Positions 423 through 54,318 of a stretch of 64,000 nt of DNA are shown in pieces. Origin of the DNA: a virus; the IMG/VR virus record IMGVR_UViG_3300045988_126112, positions 64,001 through 128,000 of that record; one strand, given 5' to 3'. The position numbers were made by a program, and so were the translations under genes. Each line of letters opens with the position of its first letter. The stretch's first letter is position 1. The notes beneath the pieces were generated by a model. It was not told where the DNA came from. It made no database searches and was given only the letters and a program-made list of their open reading frames with translations.

Positions 423-436
423 TTATAATAGTGTTA
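423..436 (-). promoter_or_regulatory. Class II box TAACA-N6-TAA (candidate late promoter)
   Basis: Minus strand reads aatagaaTAACActattaTAAtaaa. 28 nt from the prohead protease ATG. Confidence 0.55.
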
Positions 437-479
437 TTCTATTCAATATCGGTATTTTGTAAAAGTCGATTCTTTCACT

Positions 480-490
480 TATATATTATA
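480..490 (+). promoter_or_regulatory. Class I box TATATATTATA-N4-TG (candidate early promoter)
   Basis: cactTATATATTATAactaTG. Intergenic, 114 nt upstream of 604. Confidence 0.5.
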
Positions 491-603
491 ACTATGACAT
501 AGATATATAATATAATAAAAATATATTGGTAGTATCTTATGAAGAGATACAAATTATATCAAGTTTTCTATGTTACTTGATATAATAATTTTGGAGGTTT
601 ATT

Positions 604-882
604 ATGAGAAAAGCAAATATAAAAGGAATAGCAAATGCAAAAGGTTTTAAATTTGAAGTAAAAGTGTCAATAGGTTCTGCTGAAATAGTTAATGACAGAC
701 ATTTCTGTGGTAATAAAGATTATGACGGAAGCAAAAAAGAAATAAAAGATTTTAATTTTGAAATAGCAATGGAAGCAGAAGAAGCTAAACTAGATATAGA
801 TATGTTTGCTAAAGACATAAAAGAAACAATAAAAGAACAAATAGAAAAAAATACAGTAAGTACAACAAAAGCTGCTAAATAA
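604..882 (+). CDS. Hypothetical protein (92 aa)
   Basis: ORF track; GGAGG 7 nt upstream; terminator follows at 900-935; class I box at 480-490. Confidence 0.7.
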   Translation: MRKANIKGIANAKGFKFEVKVSIGSAEIVNDRHFCGNKDYDGSKKEIKDFNFEIAMEAEEAKLDIDMFAKDIKETIKEQIEKNTVSTTKAAK

Positions 883-899
883 TAAGAAACAAAAACAAA

Positions 900-935
900 A
901 TAAACACATGATTAATTTCATGTGTTTATTTTTTC
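900..935 (+). terminator. Rho-independent terminator
   Basis: aaacacatga/tcatgtgttt 10-bp stem followed by a T-run. Confidence 0.75.
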
Positions 936-967
936 TATGTTACTGTGTAAAACTCAATGAAGATGAT

Positions 968-978
968 TATATATTATA
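968..978 (+). promoter_or_regulatory. Class I box
   Basis: gatTATATATTATAtaagTG. Follows the terminator at 900-935; 49 nt upstream of 1027. Confidence 0.55.
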
Positions 979-1026
979 TAAGTGTATGAATAATATAATA
1001 TATATAAATTAAAGGAGGTAAATATT

Positions 1027-1824: not shown

Positions 1825-1838
1825 TAACAATATATTAA
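1825..1838 (+). promoter_or_regulatory. Class II box
   Basis: aaaTAACAatatatTAAaat. The TAA begins 27 nt before the ATG at 1863. Confidence 0.55.
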
Positions 1839-1862: not shown

Positions 1863-3950
1863 ATGCTAAACCCACTAGATATAAATAAACGTAAACATGA
1901 AGTAGAACAAGCTATATCTCCACAAAATTTATCAATGACTGAACGTTCAGCAAGAAAAGGGTCTATATCTAAAATGGAAGAATGTTTTAAATATTGGAAT
2001 TCTTTTTCAGTAGATGAAACATTATCTTTACATCATACATTAGATATCGTAAAAGAATGTTTATCTCATAATAATGATGACTATGTAAAAGATAAGATAT
2101 CATTTATACTTGAGAATAATCTAATACCTAAACTACACAAAAAAGAATCTTTATTAGAAGTAAATACCTTTTCCATAGATTGTGGTTTACCTAATTTAAA
2201 ACTTCTATCTAAATGTAATGAAATGATTACATATGATAGAATACTTAGAAATCAAAATACTTTAGAAAACGGTATAGAAGTTACATCATATAGAGATTTA
2301 GAGGAATGTGTAATGGATATATGTAATGCATATAATAATTCTGGATTATCTATGAAAGAAAAATATGCTTTAAGTGTTGAGAGTTCATTATATACAAAGT
2401 ATTTATTATCTAATATAATTATGGTAAATGAATCAGATGAAGATATAATAGACTTGGTCGATTTATTTTTTGCTTTAAACTGTAATGAGCAATTTGAATA
2501 TGATAAAATTAATCCTATATCTTTAAATGAAGATATAAATTCTTTTTCATATTCAGTTGTAAATGGAATGATGAGTGGTATGTATATAAATGGTGGATGG
2601 ACTGTAGATCAAATGCTATCTAGATTACCTCATGGAGAACTTAAAAAATATGAAAAAGCTAATAAGTTACATCCTTTAGATGTTATAGACTTAGAGATGT
2701 CTAAATCTATAAGTGCTTATACTAATAATGAAAGTGGTGATTCATATAGAAGTGAATTTATTAAAAAGAAAATAGACGGCAGAAGTTATAATTGCATAGC
2801 TTTTTATGAAAATGCTTCTTTAAGCAAATTATCTATCTTATATAAAAAAGGAGAAAATCTAGTTATAGTTCCTATATATTCTAAATTTGGTGAATCTCAA
2901 CCACTTATTGTAGAAAGAGGAGTAGCTAGAAATCTATATGAAGAAACTGATAATCTAATATATCTTGATGAGAAAAAACTTATGAAGAAATTAGAAAAGA
3001 AAGTTAAATCTATAGACTTTAAGAATATAAAAACTCTAAATGAATTAAAGAAAAAGATAGATAATATGTGTACTAAATTCTTTACTAAGAAAGATACTTC
3101 TATATTAGATGAAGTTCCTGGAGTATTTACTTGTGTAAGAGCTAGTTGTATAGCTGGTGCTTTTGCTGTTCATCCTATGTTTGGTGCTGTTGCTTTTATG
3201 ACTAATAAGTTTATGAAGATGCATTTTGAGAGAAAACAAAAAGATAAAGTTCTTAAACAATATGATGCTGAAATTAAAAAAGTTGAAAGCAAAATAGAGA
3301 AATGTAAAAGCGATAAGACTAAAGAAAACTATAAGAAGTACCTTAAAGAATTAAAAGATAATCGTAGTACTCTTGAAGAATATTATGATCAATTCTTTAC
3401 TGACGATGAATTATATGATAACTTTGACGAATCAACTGAAGTATTAAATGAATTATCACTTACAAATAGTCTTAAATTAGCTAAAGAAAAATTTAAGAAA
3501 AATTTTGTAAAAATGTCAGATAAAGAAAAGAAACTATCTACTCAAATGGATAATGCATACGATAGATTTGTATATCAAGTTGAAAAGAATCTTTCTAATA
3601 AAAATAGAGAAGCAGTTATTAAAGGTTCTTTAATACCTTCATTCTCTGCTATGTTAAAACTTGCAATGGCTGCTGCTACAGTTAGTTTTATAAGTCCAGC
3701 ATTAGCTGGTATAACTGTTATGGGTGGTATAGCTGCATCTAAAAATGCTACAAGAAAAGAAAGAAAATATATATTAGATGAAATAGATATACAATTAGAA
3801 ATTGTAGAAAAGAAACTTCAATTAGCTGAAAATAATAATGACATGAAAGCATATGAACAACTTCTTAGACTAAAAAGACAATTAGAAAGCGAAAAGAACA
3901 GAATTATCTACAAAAGAAAAAGATCTATTGTTGCTACTAAATATAACTAA
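1863..3950 (+). CDS. Hypothetical late protein (695 aa) with C-terminal hydrophobic segments and coiled-coil-like K/E-rich stretches
   Basis: ORF track; AAAGGAGG upstream; class II box at 1825-1838. Hydrophobic runs: CIAGAFAVHPMFGAVAFM and LAMAAATVSFISPALAGITVMGGIAA. No family recognised. Confidence 0.75.
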   Translation: MLNPLDINKRKHEVEQAISPQNLSMTERSARKGSISKMEECFKYWNSFSVDETLSLHHTLDIVKECLSHNNDDYVKDKISFILENNLIPKLHKKESLLEVNTFSIDCGLPNLKLLSKCNEMITYDRILRNQNTLENGIEVTSYRDLEECVMDICNAYNNSGLSMKEKYALSVESSLYTKYLLSNIIMVNESDEDIIDLVDLFFALNCNEQFEYDKINPISLNEDINSFSYSVVNGMMSGMYINGGWTVDQMLSRLPHGELKKYEKANKLHPLDVIDLEMSKSISAYTNNESGDSYRSEFIKKKIDGRSYNCIAFYENASLSKLSILYKKGENLVIVPIYSKFGESQPLIVERGVARNLYEETDNLIYLDEKKLMKKLEKKVKSIDFKNIKTLNELKKKIDNMCTKFFTKKDTSILDEVPGVFTCVRASCIAGAFAVHPMFGAVAFMTNKFMKMHFERKQKDKVLKQYDAEIKKVESKIEKCKSDKTKENYKKYLKELKDNRSTLEEYYDQFFTDDELYDNFDESTEVLNELSLTNSLKLAKEKFKKNFVKMSDKEKKLSTQMDNAYDRFVYQVEKNLSNKNREAVIKGSLIPSFSAMLKLAMAAATVSFISPALAGITVMGGIAASKNATRKERKYILDEIDIQLEIVEKKLQLAENNNDMKAYEQLLRLKRQLESEKNRIIYKRKRSIVATKYN

Positions 3951-3962: not shown

Positions 3963-5063
3963 ATGTTATATAGTGATCTTATAGAAAAATATAGAAGAGA
4001 GTATAGAGCTTTGCATGAAGCTGACGAAGATGAAGAAAAGAAAAAGAATAAAAATCAACCTGATGATGATAACGAAGAGGAAGAAGATGACGAACCACCA
4101 GGAGGGGACACTCCTGATGAACCAGCTACAGATGATGAAGGTGCAGATGAAGAGGAAGAAGATGATGAACCACCAGGAGGAGATGATACTCCTGCAGATG
4201 ATAATCCTGATGAAGATGCAGAGGAAGAAGATGATGAACCACCAGGTGGTGCTGATGATGATACTGATAATGCAGACGAAGAAGAAGACGATGATGAACC
4301 AGATGTAGGAAATGATAATCCTGATGAAGGTGGAGATGAAGAAGAGGAAGATGATGAGCCACCAGGTGGTGCTGTTGATGATGGAGATACAGATACTGGA
4401 GGAGATACTATGGATGATGATGGTGGTGCTCCTACAGATGATGGAGATACTGGTGCTGATACTATGGATGACGATACTGGTGGTGACACCATAGATGATG
4501 GCGATACTGGTGGAGAAGAAAATGATAATACACCTGATGAAGGTGGTGGAGATGATACTGGTGGTGACACTATAGATGGTGGAGGAGATACTGGTGGAGA
4601 TGATACAGGCTCTGATACTATGGATGATGATGGAGATTCTGGAGGAGATGATAAGCCTGATTCAGATGAAGAAGATAATGATAATGCTGATAACTCTGAA
4701 GAAAATCCTATACAACAAATGGAAGATGAAATATTTAAAGATCTTAGTGATTCTCAAAAACAAATAAGAGATTATGAAATGAAAAGTAATTATATAAAAT
4801 TACATGACTCAATAAATGATATATTACAAAGATTAAACAATGTTTATAAAACAGATGAAAACATAAGAATAGTTGATTTTGTTACAAAACAACTAATTTC
4901 TTTAAAAGATATGGTTAAAGATTATTTAACTAAAACTTATATTACTAAAACTTTCCAAGAAAACATGTTATTTTATCAACATTGCTTAGTAATTATGAGT
5001 GATTTAAATAGATTAATAATTGAAATACTTCCAGATTTAGATGGAAATAAACCAGTTTGTTAA
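3963..5063 (+). CDS. Extremely acidic repeat protein (366 aa): low-complexity D/E/G/T/P region followed by a folded-looking C-terminal domain of about 120 aa
   Basis: ORF track; AGGAGGTGAT upstream. Four copies of EEE(E)DDEPPGG, then GDT-x-DD/GGDT repeats through about aa 245. Lies immediately upstream of the putative capsid gene. Confidence 0.8.
   Translation: MLYSDLIEKYRREYRALHEADEDEEKKKNKNQPDDDNEEEEDDEPPGGDTPDEPATDDEGADEEEEDDEPPGGDDTPADDNPDEDAEEEDDEPPGGADDDTDNADEEEDDDEPDVGNDNPDEGGDEEEEDDEPPGGAVDDGDTDTGGDTMDDDGGAPTDDGDTGADTMDDDTGGDTIDDGDTGGEENDNTPDEGGGDDTGGDTIDGGGDTGGDDTGSDTMDDDGDSGGDDKPDSDEEDNDNADNSEENPIQQMEDEIFKDLSDSQKQIRDYEMKSNYIKLHDSINDILQRLNNVYKTDENIRIVDFVTKQLISLKDMVKDYLTKTYITKTFQENMLFYQHCLVIMSDLNRLIIEILPDLDGNKPVC
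4060..4680 (+). repeat. In-frame degenerate tandem repeats encoding the acidic low-complexity region
   Basis: gaagaggaagaagatga(c/t)gaaccaccagg(a/t)gg recurs at about 4075, 4150, 4222 and 4340. After that come ggagatact / gatgatgatgg-type repeats. Confidence 0.8.
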
Positions 5064-5072
5064 TCAATTTAA

Positions 5073-5086
5073 TAACAATATAATAA
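5073..5086 (+). promoter_or_regulatory. Class II box
   Basis: ttaaTAACAatataaTAAaaa. Upstream of the putative capsid gene. Confidence 0.55.
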
Positions 5087-5120: not shown

Positions 5121-6872
5121 ATGCCAGTAGTTGGTGAAAAAAAGAAAAAACAATCAAATAATAAGTCATACATGTATGAACCTATTTACGGGCTTTCAAA
5201 AGCTTTCTTAGAATGTGCAAAAGATATATTAAATGAAGGTAGAGTAGATATATTCTCTAATGCTAAATTAGCATGTTTACAAAAAAATACAAATGATTCT
5301 TTAAAAAGATTCTTTATAGAAGAATCTGCTGATAGAGATTCTATGACTGCCGAACAATATGATGATCATATGCTTATGATGGAACAATTATATGAAAATG
5401 ATCGTGATTTATTGCTTGAATATACACCAATGGCTACAGTTAACCCATTAATCGGTACAACTTTACCATTACACAAAAACTTATTAATGAACAATGTGTT
5501 CACTCAAACAAATGCTATACCAAAAGCAGTAGCAGCATCTCCAAAGTGGACAGAATCAATGGAATATAGATATCTTGTAACTCCAGATGGAGAAGAAATA
5601 GATTTCTATACTCAACAACATTTAATGACTAAAGCAGTAGATGCTACAGCTCCATATAAAGAAATAGAACTTAAACTTCCTGAATATGGAGAAACAGATA
5701 TGTTAGATGCTATAGGAGCAAGTTCTATAGACAATTTATCAGTAGATACAATAGTATCTGCAGTTGCTGTACCAGTAACAGAAGTTGCTGATGGACAAGA
5801 AGAAGCAAAAATAGAAGGTGTTGACGGAACTTATATTTGGATGCCAGTTAACATCAAATTTGGTCCTACTTATGGTGAAAATGAAAGAGCTATGGTAGGA
5901 AACATAAGACCAGCATTAACAATTAAAAACTTAAAAGTTGATGGTGATATACAAGACGATATGATCCAAGGTACTATGAATAAAAATAAAATAACAGTAG
6001 TTGGATTAAAAGGAATGGTTAAAGCAGTTAAAATTAGAACTAGAAAAGATACTTCTAATGCAATGCTACCAACTTGTAGTGTAAAATGGAAAGAAATCAC
6101 AGATTTATTCGAAATGCCAAATGCAATTCCAATAAATGTGCCAATCTCTCCAGAAGAAATAAAAGACTATGCTGCATTATATAATATAAATCAATTAACA
6201 AAAATAATGTCTATGATAAAAATAGTATTAGAAAACTATAAAGATGATCATATACTAGAATTCTTAGATAATTCATATGATAGACTAGATCCTAGTCAAA
6301 CTAACTTCTTACAAATTGACTGGGCTCCAAGACATAACTATGCATTAGATCATGTTGAATGGAGACATAAAGTATCATTTGATGCAATTGATACATTTGC
6401 TACTAAATTAGTAAATATATTAAATGATCCAAATGTTACTACAACATTCTTCGGTAGACCTGATTTAATAAGAAAAATAACTCCAACTGAATATTCTTAT
6501 GAATCTCCTAAGAATATAGGACCAGTTACATTAGAGTTCCAAAAGGCTGTACATACTACAGACAACAGAACTTATCAATTCATTTCTTCTCAAAAATTTG
6601 AAAAGAAATATGATTCTAATTTAGCAAATCAATTAATATGTATATTATCACCTAAAAATACTGATAGAATAATATACAAAGAATACGATTATCAAATGTA
6701 TGTAGGTAATGAAATAAGAAATGCTGTAAACTATGCATTACCAGCTGTACATTCATTTGAAAGATGGATGATGACTGAATATCAACCAGTACAAGGTAGA
6801 ATAGAAATACTTAACCCAACTGGAATAGTAGAAAAACCAGCTGTAAACGTTAATATAATAGAAAAACCTTAA
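5121..6872 (+). CDS. Putative major capsid protein (583 aa)
   Basis: Own class II box (5073-5086) and a strong terminator (6897-6930). Visibly different codon choice (many TTC/AAC/CCA/GTA codons) suggests high expression. Follows the acidic scaffold-like gene. No diagnostic motif seen, so the call is positional. Confidence 0.4.
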   Translation: MPVVGEKKKKQSNNKSYMYEPIYGLSKAFLECAKDILNEGRVDIFSNAKLACLQKNTNDSLKRFFIEESADRDSMTAEQYDDHMLMMEQLYENDRDLLLEYTPMATVNPLIGTTLPLHKNLLMNNVFTQTNAIPKAVAASPKWTESMEYRYLVTPDGEEIDFYTQQHLMTKAVDATAPYKEIELKLPEYGETDMLDAIGASSIDNLSVDTIVSAVAVPVTEVADGQEEAKIEGVDGTYIWMPVNIKFGPTYGENERAMVGNIRPALTIKNLKVDGDIQDDMIQGTMNKNKITVVGLKGMVKAVKIRTRKDTSNAMLPTCSVKWKEITDLFEMPNAIPINVPISPEEIKDYAALYNINQLTKIMSMIKIVLENYKDDHILEFLDNSYDRLDPSQTNFLQIDWAPRHNYALDHVEWRHKVSFDAIDTFATKLVNILNDPNVTTTFFGRPDLIRKITPTEYSYESPKNIGPVTLEFQKAVHTTDNRTYQFISSQKFEKKYDSNLANQLICILSPKNTDRIIYKEYDYQMYVGNEIRNAVNYALPAVHSFERWMMTEYQPVQGRIEILNPTGIVEKPAVNVNIIEKP

Positions 6873-8166: not shown

Positions 8167-8187
8167 ATTACTAAACATCTTTTTAAT

Positions 8188-8198
8188 CATATATTATA
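8188..8198 (+). promoter_or_regulatory. Class I box
   Basis: aatCATATATTATAtaggTG. After the terminator at 8136-8166; 39 nt upstream of 8237. Confidence 0.55.
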
Positions 8199-8236
8199 TA
8201 GGTGAAATAAAATAAATATATTGGAGGTAATACAAT

Positions 8237-8821
8237 ATGAATAATTTTGAAGTACAACAAAAAGAAATAAGTGATGAAAAATATTTAGCATCAATAATGA
8301 ATAAAATGATGTCACTAGAACGTTATGTAGATGTATGTAGTAAAGCAAAAGAGATGGGCATTTCAACTAAAGAAATGATATCTTTTGTTGATGATTTTTA
8401 TGGAGAACCAAATATTTGTAATCATGAAGTATCATTTGATTGTAATGTATTTGAATATACATATTCAAATGGAGTTAAAGATGGAGTAAAATGTAGAATG
8501 TGTAATCATAAAATGAAATTAGAAACTTTTGATTTAGCAGTAAAATTAGGATTAGGTAATAAAATTATTGATATAAATAAGGAGGAAGAAACAATGAAAA
8601 AATATTTAATATTAGGGCAATTTAATGATGGAAGTACAGGTATGATGTATGCTATAATAAATGCCAATGATGATTTAGAAGCTATGAAAAAAGTAGAAAA
8701 ATCATTAGAAGATGGACATGTAAATACAGATATAATATCAGTAATGAGTCCTATTGAAATAACTGATTCAGATCAAGTTAATTTTGTTATCCCTAGTGGA
8801 ATAACAAAATTAGATTTCTAG
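8237..8821 (+). CDS. Hypothetical Cys-rich protein (194 aa)
   Basis: ORF track; GGAGG upstream; class I box at 8188-8198. An in-frame internal AAGGAGGAAG-N5-ATG at about 8595 could give a separate 75-aa product. Confidence 0.65.
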   Translation: MNNFEVQQKEISDEKYLASIMNKMMSLERYVDVCSKAKEMGISTKEMISFVDDFYGEPNICNHEVSFDCNVFEYTYSNGVKDGVKCRMCNHKMKLETFDLAVKLGLGNKIIDINKEEETMKKYLILGQFNDGSTGMMYAIINANDDLEAMKKVEKSLEDGHVNTDIISVMSPIEITDSDQVNFVIPSGITKLDF

Positions 8822-13493: not shown

Positions 13494-13504
13494 CATATAT
13501 TATA
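13494..13504 (+). promoter_or_regulatory. Class I box
   Basis: aatCATATATTATAatatTG. 21 nt upstream of the ATG at 13525. Confidence 0.5.
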
Positions 13505-13524
13505 ATATTGGGAGGATGATTAGT

Positions 13525-18695: not shown

Positions 18696-18702
18696 CATAA
18701 TT

Positions 18703-41970: not shown

Positions 41971-41989
41971 TATCTTTGCACCTCCTCAA

Positions 41990-42031
41990 AAAGTAAATAA
42001 AATAGAGATTACCCAAAAGGCAATCTCTATT
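41990..42031 (-). terminator. Terminator/attenuator hairpin inside the paralogue operon (minus strand)
   Basis: aatagagatt/aatctctatt stem. The minus strand continues ttatttacttttt. Confidence 0.6.
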
Positions 42032-42053
42032 TGGGATTTATTTATAAACTAAA

Positions 42054-43172: not shown

Positions 43173-43198
43173 TATAATTTCCTCCTTTTTTATATAAA

Positions 43199-44344: not shown

Positions 44345-44386
44345 TATAGTTTCCTCCTTTATTAAGCATAATATTTTATTTTATAG

Positions 44387-45526
44387 TTATAAACAATATT
44401 GTTCAAACATTTCATTTATTTCATATTCAGCTGCTTCTTCTACAGCATCTAAATATACTGATTCATTTTTAGCTTTATCATTATAAGATACAGCTTTAGC
44501 AAATACTTTTCTAGCTTGAGAAATTCTAAATTTATTTTCATTTAAGAAACAAGCAACGGCTCTATTATGAACATTTTCAAGATTATTTATTACAGTTTGA
44601 ATTACTCCAGCATTTTGTAAATAATTAGTAATAGTTTTATTACTAGTTATAGGAATTTTTTTAGATGCATCATCTGGTCTATCTATTTCTATTTTTTTAT
44701 TATTATCATCTATTTTACTTTTAGATAGGTCTTTACTATATCTATCTAAATCTTTTAATATACTTCTAAAGTGTTTATCTACAGATTTTTGTGCTGTTTC
44801 AATATCTTTTTTAGTTTTATCACCTTGAAGTATTATTATTATTTCTGTAAGTCTTGATGAATCTAATCCTTCTTCTGATTCTTCTGAATCGAAACAAATA
44901 TCATGGACTTCTTTTGATAAATCTTTCATTTCAACATTTTTAAGTTTACCACTTATACATTTTTCTATGAAGTATTCATTTAATTCATCTTTTTCAAGCA
45001 TATCTTTATAAAAAGTTAATGAACCAAACCAGTTAGCAAAGCCTTTCATAACATTATCTGCTTCATCTTTAAATTTATCTTTTGTTGTTAAAGAATCTTT
45101 TATATCGTTAAATCCTTCTAATTGCTTACAATATTTGTATTTTAATTTACTAAGATTTTTAGTTCTTACTTGACGTTGATATTTTTCAACAAATTTTTTA
45201 TTATCTCTTATGATAACTGTATCTAACTTCTTTAAAAAAGTTGAGAAAACACCTTTAATTTTTTCCCATATTTTCTTTATCATTGATTTAAATGCTTCAA
45301 AGAATCCACCTAATGAAGCTTCTGTAAATGCTAATAATTCTTCTTCTGATGCTCCTTCATTAATCATTGTAGCTTCTTGAAAATCTCTAGCTATATTATA
45401 CTCAAATATAGCACGATTATTTCTTTCCATATCTATAAGAGCATTATAACAACCTAATGTACCAACATAAGATTCATTAGCTTGCACATCATATTCTGAT
45501 TCCATATGTCTTGAATATATTCCCAA
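44387..45526 (-). CDS. Paralogue family member P5 (379 aa), TTG start
   Basis: The track ORF starts at the GTG at 45535, which abuts AGGAGG. The TTG at 45524-45526 is 8-9 nt from the SD and gives the N-terminus MGIYSRH, matching the paralogues. Confidence 0.75.
   Translation of the reverse strand: MGIYSRHMESEYDVQANESYVGTLGCYNALIDMERNNRAIFEYNIARDFQEATMINEGASEEELLAFTEASLGGFFEAFKSMIKKIWEKIKGVFSTFLKKLDTVIIRDNKKFVEKYQRQVRTKNLSKLKYKYCKQLEGFNDIKDSLTTKDKFKDEADNVMKGFANWFGSLTFYKDMLEKDELNEYFIEKCISGKLKNVEMKDLSKEVHDICFDSEESEEGLDSSRLTEIIIILQGDKTKKDIETAQKSVDKHFRSILKDLDRYSKDLSKSKIDDNNKKIEIDRPDDASKKIPITSNKTITNYLQNAGVIQTVINNLENVHNRAVACFLNENKFRISQARKVFAKAVSYNDKAKNESVYLDAVEEAAEYEINEMFEQYCL
45131..45363 (-). repeat. 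233-nt tract identical to 43934..44166 (inside paralogue P5)
   Basis: See the partner feature. Encodes ...EGASEEELLAFTEASLGGFFEAFKSMIKKIWEKIKGVFSTFLKKLDTVIIRDNKKFVEKYQRQVRTKNLSKLKYKY. Confidence 0.85.
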
Positions 45527-45538
45527 TTTTAGCACCTC

Positions 45539-46564
45539 CTAAAAAATTGATGAAGCAACTGAATCTGGCATTGAATCTACCAAATCATCTGCTTTATATT
45601 TCTTTGTGTTATCACTTTTAACTTCTCTTGAAGCTTTTACTTCACTTTGTTTATTATCTATTGCTATTTTATTAGCAACTTTATCAAAGAAATTAGCAAT
45701 TGCATATTGCTTTTTAGATATTTCTTTTCTTTCTTTAGCTTTCATTCCAGGATTTGTTTCTACAGCTTGAGCATTTATTTTTAATAATTCAGATTGTATA
45801 TAGAAATAATCTGAAACTTGAGTTCTAGTATGGAAGAAGAAGTATACTAATTCTCTCATTATCGGAAGTATATTTGTAGCTAATAAAGTTAAAGCTACTA
45901 CAGCAGCAACACCTGCAACTGAAGTTGAAACACCTAAAAGATTTTTACTAGCTTGAGATATTACATATTCCATTGATTTATCAAAATCACCTTTCTTACA
46001 GCATTGATTGAATTTAGCTAAGTTATTTAAAACTAAATTATCTTTAGTTTTATTAACAGCTATTTTATCAACTACAGCTTCATATGAATCTCCATTAGGA
46101 ATTTTAATAAATTCAACACAAGTAGATATTAAATATGAATTAGCTTGTATAACAGCTAAAGTCATTGTAGAATACATTACCATCGGTAATTCGATACTTA
46201 ATTTAAAAGCTTTTTCAAACAATTCTCTTCTTGAACGTATATTATCTAAAGCTTCCAATACTGTATCTACTGGATTAGCTTTTTGACCATATTGTGATAA
46301 TAAAGATTTCATTACATCTAAACTATCAACCAATTGTTCATAATTACTAAGCTTAGTAATATCACCTTTAGTTTCTGGTATATCACCAAAATCTATATCA
46401 TCAATCTTATTGATGATATGGTCATAAAGTCTACTAGTTAATGATGCTAATATTTGAGATTGGTCTTCTTCATTTACATTAAGCATTATAGTTCTAGTAT
46501 CTTTATCATCTAAATCAAAATGCTCTTTTAATATTTGATCATATTCCTTAGTCATATAAGCCAT
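45539..46564 (-). CDS. Hypothetical late protein (341 aa) with one hydrophobic segment
   Basis: ORF track; GGAGGTGAT upstream; class II box at 46580-46593. Hydrophobic segment: VAGVAAVVALTLLATNILPI. Confidence 0.7.
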   Translation of the reverse strand: MAYMTKEYDQILKEHFDLDDKDTRTIMLNVNEEDQSQILASLTSRLYDHIINKIDDIDFGDIPETKGDITKLSNYEQLVDSLDVMKSLLSQYGQKANPVDTVLEALDNIRSRRELFEKAFKLSIELPMVMYSTMTLAVIQANSYLISTCVEFIKIPNGDSYEAVVDKIAVNKTKDNLVLNNLAKFNQCCKKGDFDKSMEYVISQASKNLLGVSTSVAGVAAVVALTLLATNILPIMRELVYFFFHTRTQVSDYFYIQSELLKINAQAVETNPGMKAKERKEISKKQYAIANFFDKVANKIAIDNKQSEVKASREVKSDNTKKYKADDLVDSMPDSVASSIF

Positions 46565-46579: not shown

Positions 46580-46593
46580 TTAATATTCTGTTA
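46580..46593 (-). promoter_or_regulatory. Class II box
   Basis: Minus strand reads aaaTAACAgaatatTAAggtggagg. 18 nt from the ATG at 46564. Confidence 0.5.
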
Positions 46594-46641: not shown

Positions 46642-47943
46642 TTATCGCATTTTAGTCATAAGAGTTATCATTTTTCTGAAATCATTATCACTAGATTCTC
46701 TTTCTAGTGATCTAAATGAAAGTCTCTCATAAACATCATTACCAGTATCATAAATGAAGTCACATACTTCATTTAATTCATCTACTATAACAACAGACAT
46801 TAAATTGTAAGATTCCATTATAGGTCTTATTACTCTAGGATTATCTATATGAACATTGTAATTCTTTTTAAGATATTGTACTTCTTCTTGAGAAACTACT
46901 AATGTAGTTATAGCACTAGCATCATTTGGTTGACCTAAAGTTCTTCTTATTTTAGATTTCAAAGAACGTCTTTCTAATACTTTCCATAATTTAGAACTTG
47001 AACCTCTACGTGATTGAGATAAAGCATCTATTTTTGCTTTATCAATAGCAAATAAGAAATCTTTAACAAAAGATATTTCTCTTGTAGTAGCTCTTATGAA
47101 TTTTAAAAATCCATTATTATCTACATTTTTAGAGTATAATCTTTCTACTACATCCATAGAATCTATAGGATATAGTTTTGCTTTTACACCTATAACTAAT
47201 CTATTTTGTATAGGCATTCCATCAGTATTAGTAACAAAGTTTACTATCATTACAGTTGGTACTAATTCATTAGCTTTTTTAACATCTGAATCCATTAATT
47301 GATTTCTAAGAATATCAACATGATTTTTTGAACCTTTAAAATCCATATCTAAATAACGTTCTTCATCATAGTCTATAGGAGGAGCTTCATATAATATAGC
47401 ACTTTGACTACCATCATATTTTGAAGCTACTATCTTATAATTTTCTAATGAAATATTATTTACTGATTCTGGAAGTACATAACTTATATTATGTTTAAAA
47501 TCTTCTTTAAGCAAATCAAGTTTTTCTCTATATTCAATTGGATTGATATTAGCATTTTCATCTGCAGCTGACATTATTAAGTCATCCATTAAATTCATAA
47601 AACTATCAACAGACATTTTATCGTCTATTTTTAGATTAGTATGGAATTTCTTAATATAATCTAATCCATTATTAGTATTATTTACTGATATAGCAGAAAA
47701 AAGCATCTGTAACATAGATACAGCTTTACGTTCAACAGCTTTAGCTACCATTGTTGCATTTTCTACACTTATGTTTCTAACTGTCGCTACTGGAAAGACT
47801 AATGTTAATGCATCTGAAGCATGCGAAATAGATTTGAAACTGTCATTAGCAGTCATACCCTTAATGTAATCTGATTTTCTAACATCATTTATAACGTCTA
47901 TAATATCTCTTATAACTGTTTCATGTATTATATCATTTGACAT
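46642..47943 (-). CDS. Hypothetical late protein (433 aa)
   Basis: ORF track; AAAGGAGG upstream; class II box at 47969-47982. Confidence 0.7.
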   Translation of the reverse strand: MSNDIIHETVIRDIIDVINDVRKSDYIKGMTANDSFKSISHASDALTLVFPVATVRNISVENATMVAKAVERKAVSMLQMLFSAISVNNTNNGLDYIKKFHTNLKIDDKMSVDSFMNLMDDLIMSAADENANINPIEYREKLDLLKEDFKHNISYVLPESVNNISLENYKIVASKYDGSQSAILYEAPPIDYDEERYLDMDFKGSKNHVDILRNQLMDSDVKKANELVPTVMIVNFVTNTDGMPIQNRLVIGVKAKLYPIDSMDVVERLYSKNVDNNGFLKFIRATTREISFVKDFLFAIDKAKIDALSQSRRGSSSKLWKVLERRSLKSKIRRTLGQPNDASAITTLVVSQEEVQYLKKNYNVHIDNPRVIRPIMESYNLMSVVIVDELNEVCDFIYDTGNDVYERLSFRSLERESSDNDFRKMITLMTKMR

Positions 47944-47968: not shown

Positions 47969-47982
47969 TTAATATAATGTTA
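47969..47982 (-). promoter_or_regulatory. Class II box
   Basis: Minus strand reads tttTAACAttatatTAAaat. The 15-mer TTAACATTATATTAA is identical to the copy at 52175-52189. Confidence 0.55.
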
Positions 47983-48378: not shown

Positions 48379-48400
48379 AATGAAATTTGATTTAATAGAA

Positions 48401-48414
48401 TAACACTAATATAA
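48401..48414 (+). promoter_or_regulatory. Class II box
   Basis: aatagaaTAACActaataTAAttt. Shares the aatagaaTAACACTA flank with the copy at 423-436. Confidence 0.55.
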
Positions 48415-48431
48415 TTTGAAAGGATGTGATT

Positions 48432-49529
48432 ATGATGGCTAAAACCAAGAAGAATAAAAAAGATGACGAATTAATTAAATTATCTAGAGAGTCTAAAATA
48501 CAATCCAGTATAGATAAAAATGGTAACGTCTTACATTTAGGGAAAAGTGGCTATCTTAAAGAGACTGGAGCTTTAGATAATAAGACATTAACAGAGATAC
48601 AGCAAGCTGATTTTATACAAAATTCTTCAGATATGAATTGGCTTACTAGATTTAATAGGTTAAGTTATTTGGACCCATATAATACTTTAACTCATAATAA
48701 AGAATATATATTTATAACTAAACCAGACTTACATTTATTTGAAGGTAAAAGTAGTAGTGCTTTAAATAGTGAAATAAAAGATAATACTTATTTTTTAGAC
48801 ATGTTTGAAAGATATAGACATGTAATGAAACAACTACAATATTCTGTAAATACTTCTAATCCTTATTTATGTATACTTTCTAATTCAGTAGCATCATCTA
48901 TTGAATTACCTTCTATAAATAGTTTGGAATCAGAATCTCCAGAGAATTTATATGGAGATAAAATATCATATAGACATGGCTCTGCAGCTGGAGATGTTGG
49001 ATTTGAATTCTCTTTAGAATTTTATGAAACTAAAAATTTGGAAATATATAATCTATTTAAAATGTGGGATAAATACTATGAATTAAAATCAAATGGAAGA
49101 ATCACTCCTCCAGATGATTCATATATTTTAAATATGGAATTACATGATCAAGTATCTATATATAAGATAATAGTAGGTGAAGATTATGAAACTATATTAT
49201 TCTATGCTAAATATTATGGTGTATATCCAAAAAGTTTACCTAGAGATAGCTTTGGTTCATTAGATGATGGGAATTTAAAACTAAGTGTAGATTTTAAATC
49301 TTCATTTGTTATAGATAATGACCCACTAATATTAGCTGATTTAAATAAGATATCTTATGGAGATAAAACTGGTAGTGTTGAATTAGAAAGTTTATGGGAT
49401 CATGAAAATGATAGAGTAAATTATAAATGGGTTGGAAAACCATATGTAATCAAATGTAAAGATATAGATAATGGTGAAAACTCAGAAGGAAGTATGGGAA
49501 AATATAAATTGAAATGGGGGAAAAAGTAG
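48432..49529 (+). CDS. Hypothetical late (probably virion) protein (about 365 aa)
   Basis: The track ORF starts at the GTG at 48426. The ATG at 48432 is better spaced from AAAGGA. Class II box at 48401-48414. Confidence 0.7.
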   Translation: MMAKTKKNKKDDELIKLSRESKIQSSIDKNGNVLHLGKSGYLKETGALDNKTLTEIQQADFIQNSSDMNWLTRFNRLSYLDPYNTLTHNKEYIFITKPDLHLFEGKSSSALNSEIKDNTYFLDMFERYRHVMKQLQYSVNTSNPYLCILSNSVASSIELPSINSLESESPENLYGDKISYRHGSAAGDVGFEFSLEFYETKNLEIYNLFKMWDKYYELKSNGRITPPDDSYILNMELHDQVSIYKIIVGEDYETILFYAKYYGVYPKSLPRDSFGSLDDGNLKLSVDFKSSFVIDNDPLILADLNKISYGDKTGSVELESLWDHENDRVNYKWVGKPYVIKCKDIDNGENSEGSMGKYKLKWGKK

Positions 49530-52178
49530 ATGGCAGATATGAATTACTTACCAGATATTTATAAAATAACCGATACAGTTCAAAGTATACAAAAAAATTA
49601 TATTGAGGAAGATGATGTTACTTTAACAATGGGTATCTATGGTTATTTAAATGAAGTCAATGCTAACGCATTACAAAACGCTATATTATTAGCAGCAGAA
49701 TATGGTAATGAAGCATTACCAATACGTGCTAAATATGAAAGAACCATTCTTACAAATGCTATAACTTATGATGTTAAAGATATAAATGCACAGCCAGCTG
49801 TAATGAAAGTTATGTTAGGATTCTTAAAATCTAATCTAGATAATTTTCTTGATTCAAATAAGCAATTAGTTATAGATAGATATTGCGATTTAGCTATTGA
49901 AGAATATAATTTTCATTTAGACTATGATTTAATAATAACAAGAAGAAAATTAATGAATGGAAATATTATATATTCAGCTAGATATGATTTATCTTTCGAT
50001 AATGGTATATCTGATATTACAAACCCATACTTACAATCTCCAATAATAACTTCAGTTCAAGGAGATGAATATTTATTTGTAATATGTGATATAAGACAAA
50101 CATCTTTAGATATACTTACTAATAAAATTATTACTAATAATATACTTGAATCAAAAACATTTGATTTTCAATTCGAAAATCAATTATGTAATTTTAATGT
50201 ATTTGTAAAAGAAAATGGAGTTACAACTAAATTAACGCCAATATATGAAGGTATGCCTTCAACAACAGAAAAATTCTGTTACTTTACTTATGTAAATGAA
50301 AATACAATAAGAGTAAAATTCGATAGAAAATCTTATCAACCAGCTTTAAACTGTGAAATTACAGTAGAAGTTTATACTACATTAGGTAGTGCTGGAAACT
50401 TTTCTTATTCTAAAATATTAATATTACCTTTAGAGTCTGAAAATTATGATTATAGAAATATAAAAGCTATAATAAGACCTATGGCTTCTTCCACTAATGG
50501 AAGAGATAGAAAATCTGTAAATGAATTAAAAAGAATAATACCAAAACGTATGTTAGCACGTGCTGGTATTATAAATACAAAAGATTTACAAAACTATTTT
50601 GATATGTTAGATGTTGATAATAGACTTGTAGTATTTAAGAAAAGAGATAATCAAATAGAAAGATTGTATTATGCATATTTATTAGCTAAAGATGAAAATA
50701 GTGATATAGTTCCTACAAATACTATTGAAATAAATCTTAATACTGAAAACTTTGATATTATCTATAAAGATAGATATATTTTAAAACCTGGTAGAGAGAT
50801 ATTCTATGATAAAAAAGAAATTGGATATTATGATAAAAAATTAATTGGAGAAGAAGAAAAATTAACTGAATGTGAATGCGGCTGTGGTTGTTTAATGGGT
50901 GAAAGACATCCAATATTTACTTATGCATCACCATTTATTACTGTTGTAAACAAATCACCTTTATCTATTTCTTATTATCTTGATGTAATTAATGATACTT
51001 ATATATTCGATTATGATTATATAAATCAACAGTCAGCAATACAATTTGTATCTACTAATATAAACTTATCTAAAAATTATTTAATTAGTGATGATTATGT
51101 ATTTAGAATGAGTTTCACACAAAACTCTACTACTAATGCTGATATAGTAATATATGAAAAAGATGAAGAAGGAAATAAAACTGGTGTTATCTCTGATATA
51201 CTATTAAAACCAGTTTTAGCTATAAGTATAAATGGAACAACTTATTATGTTAAAGGTGACATAGTAAACTTTGAAGAAAATACTTTCACTTATGAAACAG
51301 AATTTAGATTATCTACTAATAGCTGTTTAATAAATGAAAAAAATCAAATTCAAATAGTTAATCTAATAAGAAGTGGTGAATCTAGAGAAGAAAGTGTATT
51401 TGTTGATGAAATAATTCATATATCTGTATATGCTTTCTTAGAAAACTCATTAATTAGTGATAAAGATACTACTTATAATCCTGATATAGTAGTACCTGAA
51501 TATAATATAAATTATTCAGTTGTAAATAAATATCTAATAAATGAAGATATGCATTTATTTTATAATTATTCATCTACAATTAATTCAGTTTGTAAAGTTA
51601 ATAAACCTAATGAAGGTACTGAAACTGAAAGTTATAATTTCAGTTTAAAATCAATACCATTAATCAGACATGATTATATAAATAATAGCTATAAACTAAA
51701 TGAATTTATTAGTTATTTACAATATAGAAAATCGTATATTGATAAAGCACAAGAAATAATGGAAGATTCATTCAATATAGATTTAAAATTCTTTAACACA
51801 TATGGTCCATCTAAATTATTTAAGATTGGTAGAAAATCTGAAGAATTAGATAGAGTTAATTTAACTCTAAACTTCATTGTAAAATTAATATTGTCTTCAA
51901 ATGCTGAAGTTATATATTCTATTAAAGATAGTATAAAAGCATATATAGAAGATATAAATAAATTAACTAGTGTGCATATGAGTAATATCTGTTCTCATAT
52001 AAAACAACAATATGATTCTGATATAGATTTCATAGAATTTGTTGGAATGAATCATTATAATTCAAATTATCAATATCTTGAAAAGAATGAACCAGATATT
52101 TTAACTGATGTACCAGAGTTTATAAATGTTAACTTAAACGCTAATTTAGAGCCAGACATAAACATCACCATAATTTAA
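49530..52178 (+). CDS. Hypothetical large late (probably virion) protein (882 aa)
   Basis: ORF track. TAG-ATG abutting the previous gene suggests translational coupling. No family recognised. Confidence 0.75.
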   Translation: MADMNYLPDIYKITDTVQSIQKNYIEEDDVTLTMGIYGYLNEVNANALQNAILLAAEYGNEALPIRAKYERTILTNAITYDVKDINAQPAVMKVMLGFLKSNLDNFLDSNKQLVIDRYCDLAIEEYNFHLDYDLIITRRKLMNGNIIYSARYDLSFDNGISDITNPYLQSPIITSVQGDEYLFVICDIRQTSLDILTNKIITNNILESKTFDFQFENQLCNFNVFVKENGVTTKLTPIYEGMPSTTEKFCYFTYVNENTIRVKFDRKSYQPALNCEITVEVYTTLGSAGNFSYSKILILPLESENYDYRNIKAIIRPMASSTNGRDRKSVNELKRIIPKRMLARAGIINTKDLQNYFDMLDVDNRLVVFKKRDNQIERLYYAYLLAKDENSDIVPTNTIEINLNTENFDIIYKDRYILKPGREIFYDKKEIGYYDKKLIGEEEKLTECECGCGCLMGERHPIFTYASPFITVVNKSPLSISYYLDVINDTYIFDYDYINQQSAIQFVSTNINLSKNYLISDDYVFRMSFTQNSTTNADIVIYEKDEEGNKTGVISDILLKPVLAISINGTTYYVKGDIVNFEENTFTYETEFRLSTNSCLINEKNQIQIVNLIRSGESREESVFVDEIIHISVYAFLENSLISDKDTTYNPDIVVPEYNINYSVVNKYLINEDMHLFYNYSSTINSVCKVNKPNEGTETESYNFSLKSIPLIRHDYINNSYKLNEFISYLQYRKSYIDKAQEIMEDSFNIDLKFFNTYGPSKLFKIGRKSEELDRVNLTLNFIVKLILSSNAEVIYSIKDSIKAYIEDINKLTSVHMSNICSHIKQQYDSDIDFIEFVGMNHYNSNYQYLEKNEPDILTDVPEFINVNLNANLEPDINITII

Positions 52179-52189
52179 CATTATATTAA
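52176..52189 (+). promoter_or_regulatory. Class II box
   Basis: aattTAACAttatatTAAtat. Overlaps the stop codon of 49530..52178; 26 nt before the ATG at 52213. Confidence 0.55.
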
Positions 52190-52212
52190 TATTAGTAAAG
52201 GAGGAGAATTTA

Positions 52213-53139
52213 ATGGATACATTAAATATTATAAACAATTATAATGCAGAAGATTATATTACAGCAAGTTTAATAAGTCAACTTAATGAAGGAGAAATAA
52301 AAGATAGAAATGTAGATGAAAATGATGATATAAGAAATATATTAATGGAAATGCATCTACAAGGAAATCAAGCTAGCTTAGAATTAGATAAATTTAAAAC
52401 TAAAGTAAGAGATGATTTATTATTTGAAGCTATATATTATGTATATAAACCAACATTAAAAGATAGAATTTCACCAAGAACTGAAGCTCTATCTAAAACT
52501 TTAGTAAAAGATTTTATAGCTGAAAATGGAAGTTATGAACTTTTAAAAAGATATAAACATGAATCAGCATTTTTATCTAATCTTTATTCTATAATTGAAA
52601 ATTATGCTGGTATGATATTAGAAAAAGTAGATAAAGATAATGTAAATACTTTCTCTATAGATACAGATTTAAAAGATGATTTCTTTAATACATTAGAAGC
52701 AGAAGATTTCCAATCTATATCTACATTAGTTAATCAAAGAATTGCTGGAGCTATAGATGAATTTATAATTGATAATCAACAAACTAAAGCTCAAATAAGA
52801 GATATAGTAGCTCAAACTAAAGAAAGAATAGACACTAAACAAAATATGCCTCAAGATATAGAAGAGGCTTATAATGAACAATGTAAAACTAGAATAGCTA
52901 ATTTAAAACGTAATAAAACTAAAACTGTTCTTGAAGCATTAATATACAATATAGCTGAATCAGCTATAAGAAAACCAGAATTAAGAGAAGTATATTTCTC
53001 TGGTAATAAACCAGATATGGATTTAATAGTAGATGAAGCTACTACAGTATATTCTTTATTAGAAACTCTAAACACTTATAAATTTGCTAGAGTAAATGAA
53101 GATTATATAGTTAAAACTTTAGATAGTTTTAGAATGTAA
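52213..53139 (+). CDS. Hypothetical late protein (308 aa)
   Basis: ORF track; AAAGGAGG upstream; class II box at 52176-52189; bidirectional terminator at 53143-53182. Confidence 0.7.
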   Translation: MDTLNIINNYNAEDYITASLISQLNEGEIKDRNVDENDDIRNILMEMHLQGNQASLELDKFKTKVRDDLLFEAIYYVYKPTLKDRISPRTEALSKTLVKDFIAENGSYELLKRYKHESAFLSNLYSIIENYAGMILEKVDKDNVNTFSIDTDLKDDFFNTLEAEDFQSISTLVNQRIAGAIDEFIIDNQQTKAQIRDIVAQTKERIDTKQNMPQDIEEAYNEQCKTRIANLKRNKTKTVLEALIYNIAESAIRKPELREVYFSGNKPDMDLIVDEATTVYSLLETLNTYKFARVNEDYIVKTLDSFRM

Positions 53140-53142
53140 ATA

Positions 53143-53182
53143 AAAGCCCCATAGGTTGTTAGACCTATGGGGTATCTTTTTA
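53143..53182. terminator. Bidirectional terminator at a convergent junction
   Basis: ccccatagg/cctatgggg stem flanked by A/T runs on both sides. Confidence 0.7.
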
Positions 53183-53572
53183 TAAATATATAGTAAAATC
53201 TTTTGATGAAAAATTAGTTATATTGAATAATAAATTTAAATAAGTATTATCATTAATACAATATTTAGCCTTACACTTACATGAACTAAGTATATTTTGT
53301 ACATAAGGATTATTAAAAAATCTTTTCAATATATTTGAAGTTGTACTAAACGGATCGAAATTTATATCATTTTCAAACTCTAATGAAATAGTTTTAAATC
53401 TACCGTTCATTAAAAAATTTATATTTAAGGGATTTAATGTATTAACAATCTCTTGCTCCAATATTTTCATTGCTGTATCATCTGAATATATATTATTGTG
53501 TATAAATATTAAAAATTTTTTACATTCATCTGTAAATCTCTCATCTATAAAAGGTAATTTATTTTCTACCAT
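53180..53572 (-). CDS. Hypothetical protein (130 aa)
   Basis: ORF track; overlaps the upstream gene end by 14 nt. Confidence 0.6.
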   Translation of the reverse strand: MVENKLPFIDERFTDECKKFLIFIHNNIYSDDTAMKILEQEIVNTLNPLNINFLMNGRFKTISLEFENDINFDPFSTTSNILKRFFNNPYVQNILSSCKCKAKYCINDNTYLNLLFNITNFSSKDFTIYL

Positions 53573-54278
53573 AATAACTCAACTCACTCTCTTCTGGAAA
53601 ATTTTTTCTTTTAGATACTTGATTATATTGAAATTTATTATAAAACATATTTAAGTATCTAATATTGATTTCAATTCTAGGTAATATGGAATAATACTTA
53701 TGTACTGACCCATCTATTATTAAATCATCATCAAGCCATACATTAGCATTAAACATATCTGTATATTTTTTACCAGCATTATCCCAGTCTGGTTTCTTTA
53801 TGGGTCTTATCATTCCCATTTCTGCTAAAAATGTATCAGCAGCGTTAAATCCTTTTGGTGTTTCTATATACATTGTAATATCTACAATGCATGGAGTACA
53901 TATTAAACTTTCTAACTCATCAAACTCTTCTTTTTCCATTAATCTTTTTATATACATATTATCTTCTTTTGCACATGGCATATAAACATGTATAAAATTA
54001 CTATTATTTTTTGCCATATCTGCTAAATTATATCTATTAACTAATCTAGCTCTTGGTCTTTCTGACCCTTCTGGTTCTTCATACAATACTACATTATAAT
54101 CTTTATAGTATAGATTATTAAGCATTCCATTTCTTTTTTCCAATATTTCATTTTGTTTCTTTTCATTTATATTTAATTTATCATACAAATAGCTTAATCT
54201 CTCATTATAATCTTGTGGAATATCACCATATTTATTATAATAATTGACAGCTTTTTCTATTCTACTTTTTTTACTCAC
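53559..54278 (-). CDS. rusA: RusA-like Holliday junction resolvase (239 aa), GTG start
   Basis: ERPRARLV... then KKPDWDNAGKKYTDMFNANVWLDDDLIIDGSVHKYYS, which matches the RusA signature (PDxDN..K...D.L......DD..V......K). AAGGAGG 9 nt upstream of the GTG. Class II box at 54305-54318. Confidence 0.6.
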   Translation of the reverse strand: MSKKSRIEKAVNYYNKYGDIPQDYNERLSYLYDKLNINEKKQNEILEKRNGMLNNLYYKDYNVVLYEEPEGSERPRARLVNRYNLADMAKNNSNFIHVYMPCAKEDNMYIKRLMEKEEFDELESLICTPCIVDITMYIETPKGFNAADTFLAEMGMIRPIKKPDWDNAGKKYTDMFNANVWLDDDLIIDGSVHKYYSILPRIEINIRYLNMFYNKFQYNQVSKRKNFPEESELSYYGRK

Positions 54279-54304
54279 ATGGATATACCTCCTTTTATAT
54301 AATT

Positions 54305-54318
54305 TTAATAAATTGTTA
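54305..54318 (-). promoter_or_regulatory. Class II box
   Basis: Minus strand reads tggTAACAatttatTAAaat. 29 nt before the GTG at 54278. Confidence 0.5.

Follow-up and report, generated by a model that had tools for sequence, protein, structure and literature searches.

Two promoter classes were defined in the Bacillus jumbo phage AR9 by mapping of 5' ends (Lavysh et al. 2017, PMC5312081), many of which were poorly enriched by Terminator exonuclease (TEX) treatment (PMC5312081). The early promoter, AAATATATATTAT-(6N)-G(+1), is read by the virion RNA polymerase (RNAP) (PMC5312081), and the late promoter, AACA-(6N)-T-A/G(+1), is found at 94 of the 118 non-early start sites (PMC5312081). The late enzyme, the non-virion RNAP, has five subunits, gp270, gp154, gp105 and gp089 plus gp226 (PMC5312081, PMC5449584, PMC9209446). 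When purified, it requires A(-11)ACA(-8) and the +1 base in vitro (Sokolova 2017, PMC5449584); it reads the template strand (3'-UUGU-5'), including that of single-stranded DNA, needs deoxyuridine (dU) at -11 and -10, and depends on gp226 (PMC5449584). In gp226, V206 excludes thymine at -10, the V206G variant accepts T, and Y210 stacks on the G at -9 (Fraser 2022, PMC9209446). The valine at position 206 is absolutely conserved in the homologues of dU-containing phages (PMC9209446). In this study, we analyzed a 64-kb stretch of viral DNA (IMG/VR record IMGVR_UViG_3300045988_126112, positions 64,001 to 128,000; hereafter the window, numbered from its first nucleotide), in which a box, TAACA-N6-TAA, precedes structural and other late-looking genes. 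It is highly probable that the late (non-virion) multisubunit RNAP of a jumbo phage distantly related to AR9 and PBS1 uses this box as its core promoter.

We favor this late-promoter reading because four lines of evidence agree: the motif itself, mapped late transcription start sites (TSSs) at the orthologous genes of AR9, phylogenetic footprinting among relatives, and a homologue of gp226. An AR9-like late transcription system had already been proposed in a sequence-only reading of the window. The proposal stands on the motif match, the placement at orthologues, the footprinting and the gp226 homologue, while the polymerase gene it cited, the consensus it gave and the number of sites it counted need correction.

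A sense-oriented box between genes

According to the curated gene map, genes take up 94.3% of the window, which leaves 3649 nt (5.7%) as intergenic sequence. All nine TAACA-N6-TAA sites claimed previously were found at their coordinates and on their strands, and each is oriented toward a AAAGGAGG-type ribosome-binding site and a start codon located downstream. The late-type boxes and the genes they serve are as follows.

423-436 (-): TAACACTATTATAA, predicted +1 the A at 424; serves the head maturation protease gene (..397, -), whose AR9 orthologue g114 has a mapped late TSS.
1825-1838 (+): TAACAATATATTAA, predicted +1 at 1837, preceded by a hairpin plus T-run; serves 1863-3950 (695 aa, without family hit), at whose orthologue in relatives the box is kept.
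5073-5086 (+): TAACAATATAATAA, predicted +1 at 5085; serves the gene of the major head protein (major capsid protein, MCP), 5121-6872; AACA-N6-TAA stands upstream of the MCP in 12 of 12 relatives, and AR9 g117 has a mapped late TSS.
35643-35656 (+): TAACAACATTATAA; upstream of 35738-36607, with an early-type box next at 35672.
46580-46593 (-): TAACAGAATATTAA, predicted +1 at 46581; serves a virion protein gene, 45539-46564 (AR9 g215-like).
47969-47982 (-): TAACATTATATTAA, predicted +1 at 47970; serves a virion protein gene, 46642-47943 (AR9 g214-like); AR9 g214 has a mapped late TSS.
48401-48414 (+): TAACACTAATATAA, predicted +1 at 48413, divergent from an early-type box at 48362 (-); serves a virion protein gene, 48426-49529 (AR9 g213-like); AR9 g213 has a mapped late TSS.
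52176-52189 (+): TAACATTATATTAA, overlapping the stop codon of 49530-52178; serves 52213-53139 (syntenic with AR9 g211).
54305-54318 (-): TAACAATTTATTAA, predicted +1 at 54306; serves a RusA-like gene, 53559-54278; AR9 g208 has a mapped late TSS.

With the first A of TAA as the reference, the distance to the downstream start codon is 12-35 nt for eight of the nine boxes, in agreement with the 18-37 nt counted earlier from the T; for the ninth (35643), the annotated start codon is 82 nt away. Two pairs share longer flanks that are exactly identical, as had been reported: TTAACATTATATTAA at 47969 (-) and 52175 (+), and AATAGAATAACACTA at 423 (-) and 48401 (+). PHROGs assignments bear out the kinds of gene that had been named, namely the head maturation protease, the major head protein, three virion structural proteins and RusA.

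The signal is carried solely by placement and orientation, not by total count. There are 10 copies of TAACA-N6-TAA in the window, which is not above chance (11.6 +/- 3.3 in shuffles), and AACA-N6-TW is under-represented (141 vs 188 expected). Nine of the 10 exact copies are intergenic or straddle a stop codon. The intergenic sense strand holds eight copies against 0.33 expected, a count that leaves out the ninth site, which straddles the stop codon, and none of 2000 dinucleotide-preserving shuffles reaches eight. No copy is present on the intergenic antisense strand of the window, and a single copy lies within coding sequences (CDSs), where about seven are expected from synonymous-codon shuffles. 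A comparison of intergenic with intragenic density and orientation had been suggested as a check on the box; it finds the box concentrated between genes in the sense orientation and not randomly distributed inside open reading frames (ORFs). Antisense to genes, AACA-N6-TA occurs 11 times in the window against 24.6 expected (z -3.7); this depletion is seen only at the N6 spacing, as would be expected if spurious antisense initiation were selected against.

All dyads made of a 4-mer, a gap of 2-10 and a 3-mer (about 115,000) were enumerated without bias and ranked by intergenic strand asymmetry. AACA-N6-TAA came first in the window (11 sense vs 0), and the dyads ranked next are mostly shifted versions of it. 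Terminator-like hairpins are also frequent in the window (13 vs approximately 3 expected), and the boxes commonly come after such hairpins.

The tenth exact copy lies at 61806-61819 (+), antisense within a 2434-aa ORF at the tape-measure position, and has the third-best score against the clade matrix described below. It is possibly an antisense late promoter or else a chance copy; it may be functional because AR9 has mapped antisense late promoters.

Conservation in relatives and in AR9

The phage is an uncultured jumbo phage of approximately 244-248 kb from human-gut metagenomes. One identical protein has been deposited as part of a metagenome-assembled genome of Romboutsia timonensis, and the host is probably a gut member of the Peptostreptococcaceae. 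A megablast search with 25 kb of the window against phage records gave no match at the DNA level. At the protein level, the closest phages are those of the AR9/PBS1 group (LPJP1, Goe21, BpSp, Staphylococcus jumbo phages and phiR1-37), with 22-35% identity, and tblastn against the whole AR9 genome revealed extensive synteny with g204-g233, g114-g118, g145 and g165. The AR9 counterparts g114, g117, g213, g214, g215, g208 and g211 all have AACA-N6-T[AG] 35-64 nt upstream; g114, g117, g208, g213 and g214 have mapped late start sites and late expression (Tables S3 and S4 of PMC5312081).

An MCP 47-55% identical to that of the window is encoded on 12 IMG/VR contigs with GC contents of 26-39%. In all 12, (T/G)AACA-N6-TAA is located upstream of the MCP gene despite unrelated flanks and a variable distance to the start codon. 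The relatives' orthologues of the protease and of the 695-aa gene also keep the box upstream, as back-to-back divergent pairs. When 80 loci found with the family of the sigma-like protein (next section) were added to the MCP contigs, 34 non-redundant loci (706 kb) resulted. In these relatives, AACA-N6-TAA is independently the top strand-asymmetric intergenic dyad (109 vs 6, log-likelihood ratio 201). The densities per kb in the 34 loci are as follows.

AACA-N6-TAA: intergenic sense 1.80, intergenic antisense 0.13, CDS sense 0.085, CDS antisense 0.027.
AACA-N5-TA (control): intergenic sense 0.39, intergenic antisense 0.43, CDS sense 0.57, CDS antisense 0.315.
AACA-N7-TA (control): intergenic sense 0.47, intergenic antisense 0.41, CDS sense 0.43, CDS antisense 0.545.

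The N6 spacing between the tetramer and TA is thus strict, with 2.12 sense and 0.46 antisense intergenic occurrences per kb, whereas the N5 and N7 controls are unbiased. Antisense to genes, the relatives contain 106 copies of AACA-N6-TA compared with 201 for N5 and 348 for N7.

The information content of the clade matrix resides at AACW (W, A or T) and TAA, not in the spacer. At position -8, the clade has AACA at 135 sense and 9 antisense sites and AACT at 75 and 7, respectively; no substitution at -11, -10 or -9 has a comparable orientation bias in the clade. In the start region, +1 is nearly always A, and +2 is A in 86-88% of the sites. The clade consensus is AAC(A/T)-N6-TAA, and TAACA-N6-TAA is too narrow. 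Among the positions that had been called invariant, AAC, T(-1) and A(+1) are kept in the clade matrix, but the leading T at -12, present in nine of nine window sites, occurs in 48% of sites clade-wide, and the TAT of the spacer is local to the window genome and is not kept in relatives. The AR9 consensus had been given as AACA-N6-TW, which is slightly off, as the published form is AACA-N6-T-A/G, with A/G at +1 (PMC5312081). We also considered AACT as a subclade-specific variant that tracks the sigma-like helix and rejected this, since nearly every relative has both AACA and AACT, whatever its helix.

The sigma-like subunit and the polymerase genes

Sequence profiles and a structure model show that the gene at 13516-15042 (+) encodes a homologue of AR9 gp226, which gives the non-virion RNAP its promoter specificity as a sigma-like subunit; the late box is probably read by this homologue. 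The gene stands where g226 does in AR9 (in the order GroEL, g227, early promoter, g226, primase), and the protein aligns colinearly with gp226 (BLASTP E 9e-5). A phmmer search of the protein against the PDB found no match, and a family profile was needed: this profile matched a single PDB sequence, AR9 gp226 (7S01_A/7UM0/7UM1), over its full length (E 1.9e-21). Alignment of the family with the characterized homologues by hhalign gave 99.8% probability (E 6e-30). An AlphaFold model of the product (predicted local distance difference test score, 82.6) retrieved AR9 gp226 (7S01_A, 7UM0_A) at the top in Foldseek, along with phiKZ gp68 (8QUE_B, E 3e-5), and no others. The family is unannotated and large, with at least 420 metagenome proteins and 186 IMG/VR loci on contigs of 200-285 kb, from samples that include human gut; therefore, an AR9-like jumbo-phage clade appears to be common in metagenomes.

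The motif D-x-V-I/M-W-x-Y/F, which contains the V206 and Y210 positions, is kept in AR9, BpSp, LPJP1, three Staphylococcus phages and phiR1-37. The window protein reads N-P-(gap)-I-W-D-K at this site, followed by an invariant QDIRG, with W208 and an I207-like residue kept. Across the window family, the V206 column contains a gap, V, G, K, I or L, and Y210 is replaced by K or M, as MAFFT and hhalign agree.

The sequence-only reading had taken a split beta-prime gene at 18730-20436 (-) as support for a late polymerase. This gene does encode a jumbo-phage RNAP subunit (phrog_2986, E 8e-84), but it is the N-terminal beta-prime part of the virion RNAP and the orthologue of AR9 g145, with 206+50+45 bits to the three g145 exons versus 47 to the non-virion g270. 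As a virion RNAP subunit, it belongs with the early promoters and not with the late box. Pfam gave no match for the RNAP candidates, and PHROGs and tblastn made the assignments. The gene is uninterrupted in the window, whereas AR9 g145 is split by two insertions with homing endonucleases. Among the relatives, one locus (L046) encodes a homologue of AR9 g154 (non-virion beta-prime C) as a reciprocal best hit, the sole catalytic subunit of the late enzyme seen. The left flank of the window (8 kb, L105) encodes DNA polymerase B and a helicase, and no RNAP subunit or dU-pathway gene was found there.

Early-type boxes and tandem boxes

A second box, ttaTATATTATA-N4-TG, was absent from the sequence-only reading and matches the AR9 early consensus, with 11 intergenic sense sites in the window. 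Its core, ATATATTAT-N6-G, is found nine times on the intergenic sense strand against 0.12 expected.

13496-13510 (+): early-type box TATATTATAATATTG, immediately before the sigma-like gene; AR9 has the same arrangement.
482-496 (+): early-type box with the ttaTATATTATA-N4-TG consensus.
970 (+), 8190 (+), 18696 (-), 23992 (+), 29452 (+), 30602 (+), 33256 (+), 35672 (+) and 48362 (-): other early-type boxes.

Upstream of the sigma-like gene in relatives, an exact early box is present in 14 of 27, and a late box in one only. The late-type box at 35643 and the early-type box at 35672 are paired in a dual arrangement. A transcript starting from the latter (35672-35737, +) is predicted to open with a perfect hairpin at its 5' end (ATAGTATTGAGA ... 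TCTCAATACTAT), which may be a stabilizing or regulatory stem-loop.

Late and early boxes also occur in tandem at a fixed distance, as AACW-N6-TAA-N3-TATATTAT-N6-G, with exactly 3 nt between the end of the late box and the early core. This tandem was seen six times, at 8174-8204, 30586-30616 and 33240-33270 (all +) in the window and in three relatives (L007, L003 and L044); no other late-to-early spacing within +/-60 nt was seen more than twice. The tandem may be a dual promoter in compact form, an extended-early subclass or an occupancy switch.

An orphan early-type box at 18696-18710 (-) aims into a 349-nt gap between convergent genes. The predicted transcript of approximately 300 nt would run to a terminator-like hairpin (18433-18404), and its longest ORF does not exceed 26 aa. 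The RNA of 18395-18696 has a folding energy of -84.2 kcal/mol compared with -53.4 kcal/mol in shuffles (z -7.3). Rfam found no family over the window, this RNA included. The body of the RNA is not conserved in the fetched relatives, and only its promoter recurs elsewhere. The region 18395-18710 (-) is thus a candidate structured early non-coding RNA.

Further late-type candidates

Because TAACA-N6-TAA is too narrow, the sequence-only reading missed at least six more candidate late promoters of the window.

8174-8186 (+): late-type candidate AACATCTTTTTAA (AACA), 3 nt upstream of the early box at 8190; serves 8237-8821.
23045-23057 (-): AACT-variant candidate AACTAATTAGTAA, upstream of the operon 22988->18730.
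30586-30598 (+): AACT-variant candidate AACTATTAAATAA, 3 nt before the early box at 30602; serves 30637-33252.
33240-33252 (+): AACT-variant candidate AACTGTTTTATAA, 3 nt before the early box at 33256; serves 33296-33793.
44376-44388 (-): AACT-variant candidate AACTATAAAATAA, 31 nt upstream of the paralogue gene 43199-44344.
56499-56511 (-): AACT-variant candidate AACTTTATTATAA, 18 nt upstream of the virion gene 54339-56480 (AR9 g205-like).

The operon 22988->18730 comprises a g232-like baseplate wedge gene, a g231-like gene and the virion RNAP beta-prime N gene, and AR9 g232 and g145, the counterparts of two of them, carry the late motif. Within this baseplate/virion-RNAP operon, a 187-nt gap (20791-20977, -) holds a 43-aa ORF (20790-20921) and a near-miss late box, AACAGAATATTT, of which 11 nt are identical to the 46581 box and whose +1 is T, not A. 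The candidate at 56499-56511 overlaps the 3' end of a terminator-like hairpin.

Two of the candidates precede genes without a match in AR9. The 871-aa protein of 30637-33252 (+), with tandem late and early boxes upstream, has acetyltransferase, P-loop kinase-like and enoyl-CoA hydratase-like regions and is without an AR9 counterpart. The gene 43199-44344 belongs to a paralogue block (40897-45535, -), in which 43199-44344 and 44387-45535 are 67% identical and 42054-43172 and 40897-41970 are more weakly similar; none of its members has a family match or an AR9 match.

Perfect late boxes are also found repeatedly in relatives where two genes converge, each with a GC-rich segment behind it that contains a terminator-like hairpin but no obvious ORF. 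These boxes are found at approximately 4126 (-) in L005/L006, 3978 (-) in L008, 13099 (+) in L004/L009 and 13100 (+) in L007/L012/L013, and they may drive a late small RNA or an antisense transcript.

Alternative explanations

Several results weigh against a late promoter of the AR9 type. Three of the nine served genes have no family hit and no recognizable function. None of the four catalytic subunits of the non-virion RNAP is encoded in the window or its 8-kb left flank, where only the specificity subunit was found. The start site and temporal class are assigned by analogy with AR9, whose proteins are 20-35% identical. V206 and Y210, which shape the -10 and -9 pockets of AR9, are not conserved; therefore, the dU requirement of AR9 is not transferable to this phage, and to judge from these residues, the recognition chemistry may differ from that of AR9. 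The depletion of the motif on the sense strand within genes was rejected as evidence of selection, as it is not specific to N6 and AACA itself is at 0.83 of expectation. In addition, a few boxes overlap weak sigma-70-type matches (10/12; for example, 5057-5084, 48387-48415 and 1816-1844). These overlaps, and the frequent TAT-W-W spacer in the window, where some boxes contain TATAAT, are what one would see if the boxes were -10 regions of host sigma-A promoters and TAACA and TAA were incidental AT-rich flanks. However, the window has no excess of sigma-70-type sites (138 and 135 observed, 156 expected in both cases), the overlaps occur at chance density, and there is no consistent -35 element. 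The spacers of relatives (TCATGG, TTATTG, TTAGGG) contain no TATAAT, while AACA and TAA stay fixed, and AR9-type phages use their own polymerase for late genes (PMC5312081, PMC5449584), so we regard host promoters as very improbable.

It is unlikely, though less so, that the box is a cis element other than a core promoter, such as a regulator binding site or an RNA-level signal (a processing site or leader element). The poor TEX enrichment of many AR9 5' ends and the proximity of the box to ribosome-binding sites would suit such an element, but the distance from box to start codon ranges from 12 to approximately 90 nt across sites and relatives, unlike a translational element, and the identical motif is needed for initiation by the purified AR9 non-virion RNAP in vitro (PMC5449584). 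Moreover, the boxes often follow terminator-like hairpins, where a new transcript is needed, and their antisense depletion inside genes fits the avoidance of spurious initiation. A promoter that belongs to another temporal class or is read by another form of polymerase, such as a middle-class promoter or one used by the virion enzyme plus an accessory factor, could account for the genes with a late box and an early motif in tandem and for the departure of the clade consensus from AR9 at -8 and +2. We nevertheless think it quite improbable, because AR9 has only two promoter classes, both present here with the same gene assignments, the served genes are head and virion genes, and the sigma-like subunit is present behind an early-type box. 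As for an AT-rich word recurring by chance in a genome with 25% GC, the total in the window does equal the chance expectation (10 vs 11.6), but 9 of the 10 copies fall in 5.7% of the sequence, all oriented toward genes, which 0 of 2000 shuffles match. The motif is also the top-ranked dyad in independent relatives and is kept upstream of orthologues at 26-39% GC, which leaves chance a negligible probability.

Proposed mechanism and comparison with known systems

We propose a transcription program in which the late promoter follows the early one. The injected virion RNAP would transcribe the early genes, including that of the specificity subunit of the late polymerase; this sigma-like gene (13516-15042) would be driven from the early-type box TATATTATA-N4-TG, which matches the AR9 virion-RNAP promoter. 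The sigma-like subunit, on a split beta/beta-prime core, would then recognize AAC(A/T) at -11 to -8, presumably on the template strand by analogy with AR9. Transcription would start at the first A of TAA, giving short leaders (median approximately 29 nt) before strong Shine-Dalgarno sites. The genes with late boxes (head, virion, baseplate, RusA and virion-RNAP subunits) would be switched on next.

The late box has the same organization as the late promoter of AR9/PBS1 (Takahashivirus): AACA at -11 to -8, a 6-nt spacer, T at -1 and a purine at +1. All nine sites and that at 8174 fit the AR9 consensus, A(-11)ACA(-8)-N6-T(-1)-A/G(+1), exactly. The AR9 late promoters likewise lie 20-60 nt upstream of structural genes and serve the same orthologues. 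In both phages, gp226 or its homologue is in the same syntenic slot behind an early-type promoter, and some genes have dual early plus late promoters. Position -8 differs, being A or T here, whereas in AR9 only AACA is biased (96 vs 14, compared with 30 vs 28 for AACT), as does +2, which is A in 33% of AR9 sites versus 86-88% in the clade; the proteins of the window phage are only 20-35% identical to those of AR9. The early box of the window, ttaTATATTATA-N4-TG, shares the ATATATTAT-N6-G core with the AR9 early promoter, AAATATATATTAT-(6N)-G(+1), but the A-tract upstream of the latter is replaced by t-t/c-a. The early-type boxes in the window precede the sigma-like gene and small genes of unknown function.

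The phiKZ non-virion RNAP is a homologous polymerase with a split beta/beta-prime core and a sigma-like fifth subunit (gp68). Its late promoter differs, however: in place of AACA-N6-TA, it has TATG, with G at +1. The DNA of phiKZ contains thymine, and recognition of T-containing double-stranded DNA is reported for its enzyme. In PBS1, Dcd (dCTP deaminase) and Dtm (PF06941 dTMP phosphatase) are dU-pathway genes (PMC12697855); a dU-DNA phage of the PBS1 type would be expected to encode both, together with an inhibitor of uracil-DNA glycosylase, and to lack thymidylate synthase. No homologue of AR9 g221, g151 or g104 (Dcd, Dtm and the uracil-DNA glycosylase inhibitor) was found in the window, which is about a quarter of the genome, and because of this coverage the absence is uninformative. 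Most of the relative loci are also without such a homologue, with one Dcd-family match, in L028. We tentatively raise the possibility, which we consider rather doubtful, that the clade reads AACW-N6-TAA in the manner of AR9 on ordinary thymine DNA, the sigma-like subunit having naturally lost the dU-discriminating valine and the tyrosine that stacks at -9. If this is true, the subunit would be a naturally occurring equivalent of the engineered V206G enzyme that reads -8 less strictly. The clade allows a direct test of whether AACA-type recognition is separable from dU-DNA.

Both AR9 promoter classes and their gene assignments appear to be conserved in a large uncultured gut-phage clade whose proteins are 20-35% identical to those of AR9, and annotation of early and late genes from sequence alone becomes possible in these genomes. 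The clade also provides natural variants of template-strand sigma-like recognition, with A or T at -8, A fixed at +2 and the dU-enforcing residues replaced. Compared with the described polymerases, this is no new kind of system but a distant uncultured relative of a known one, with a modified consensus and an altered recognition subunit.

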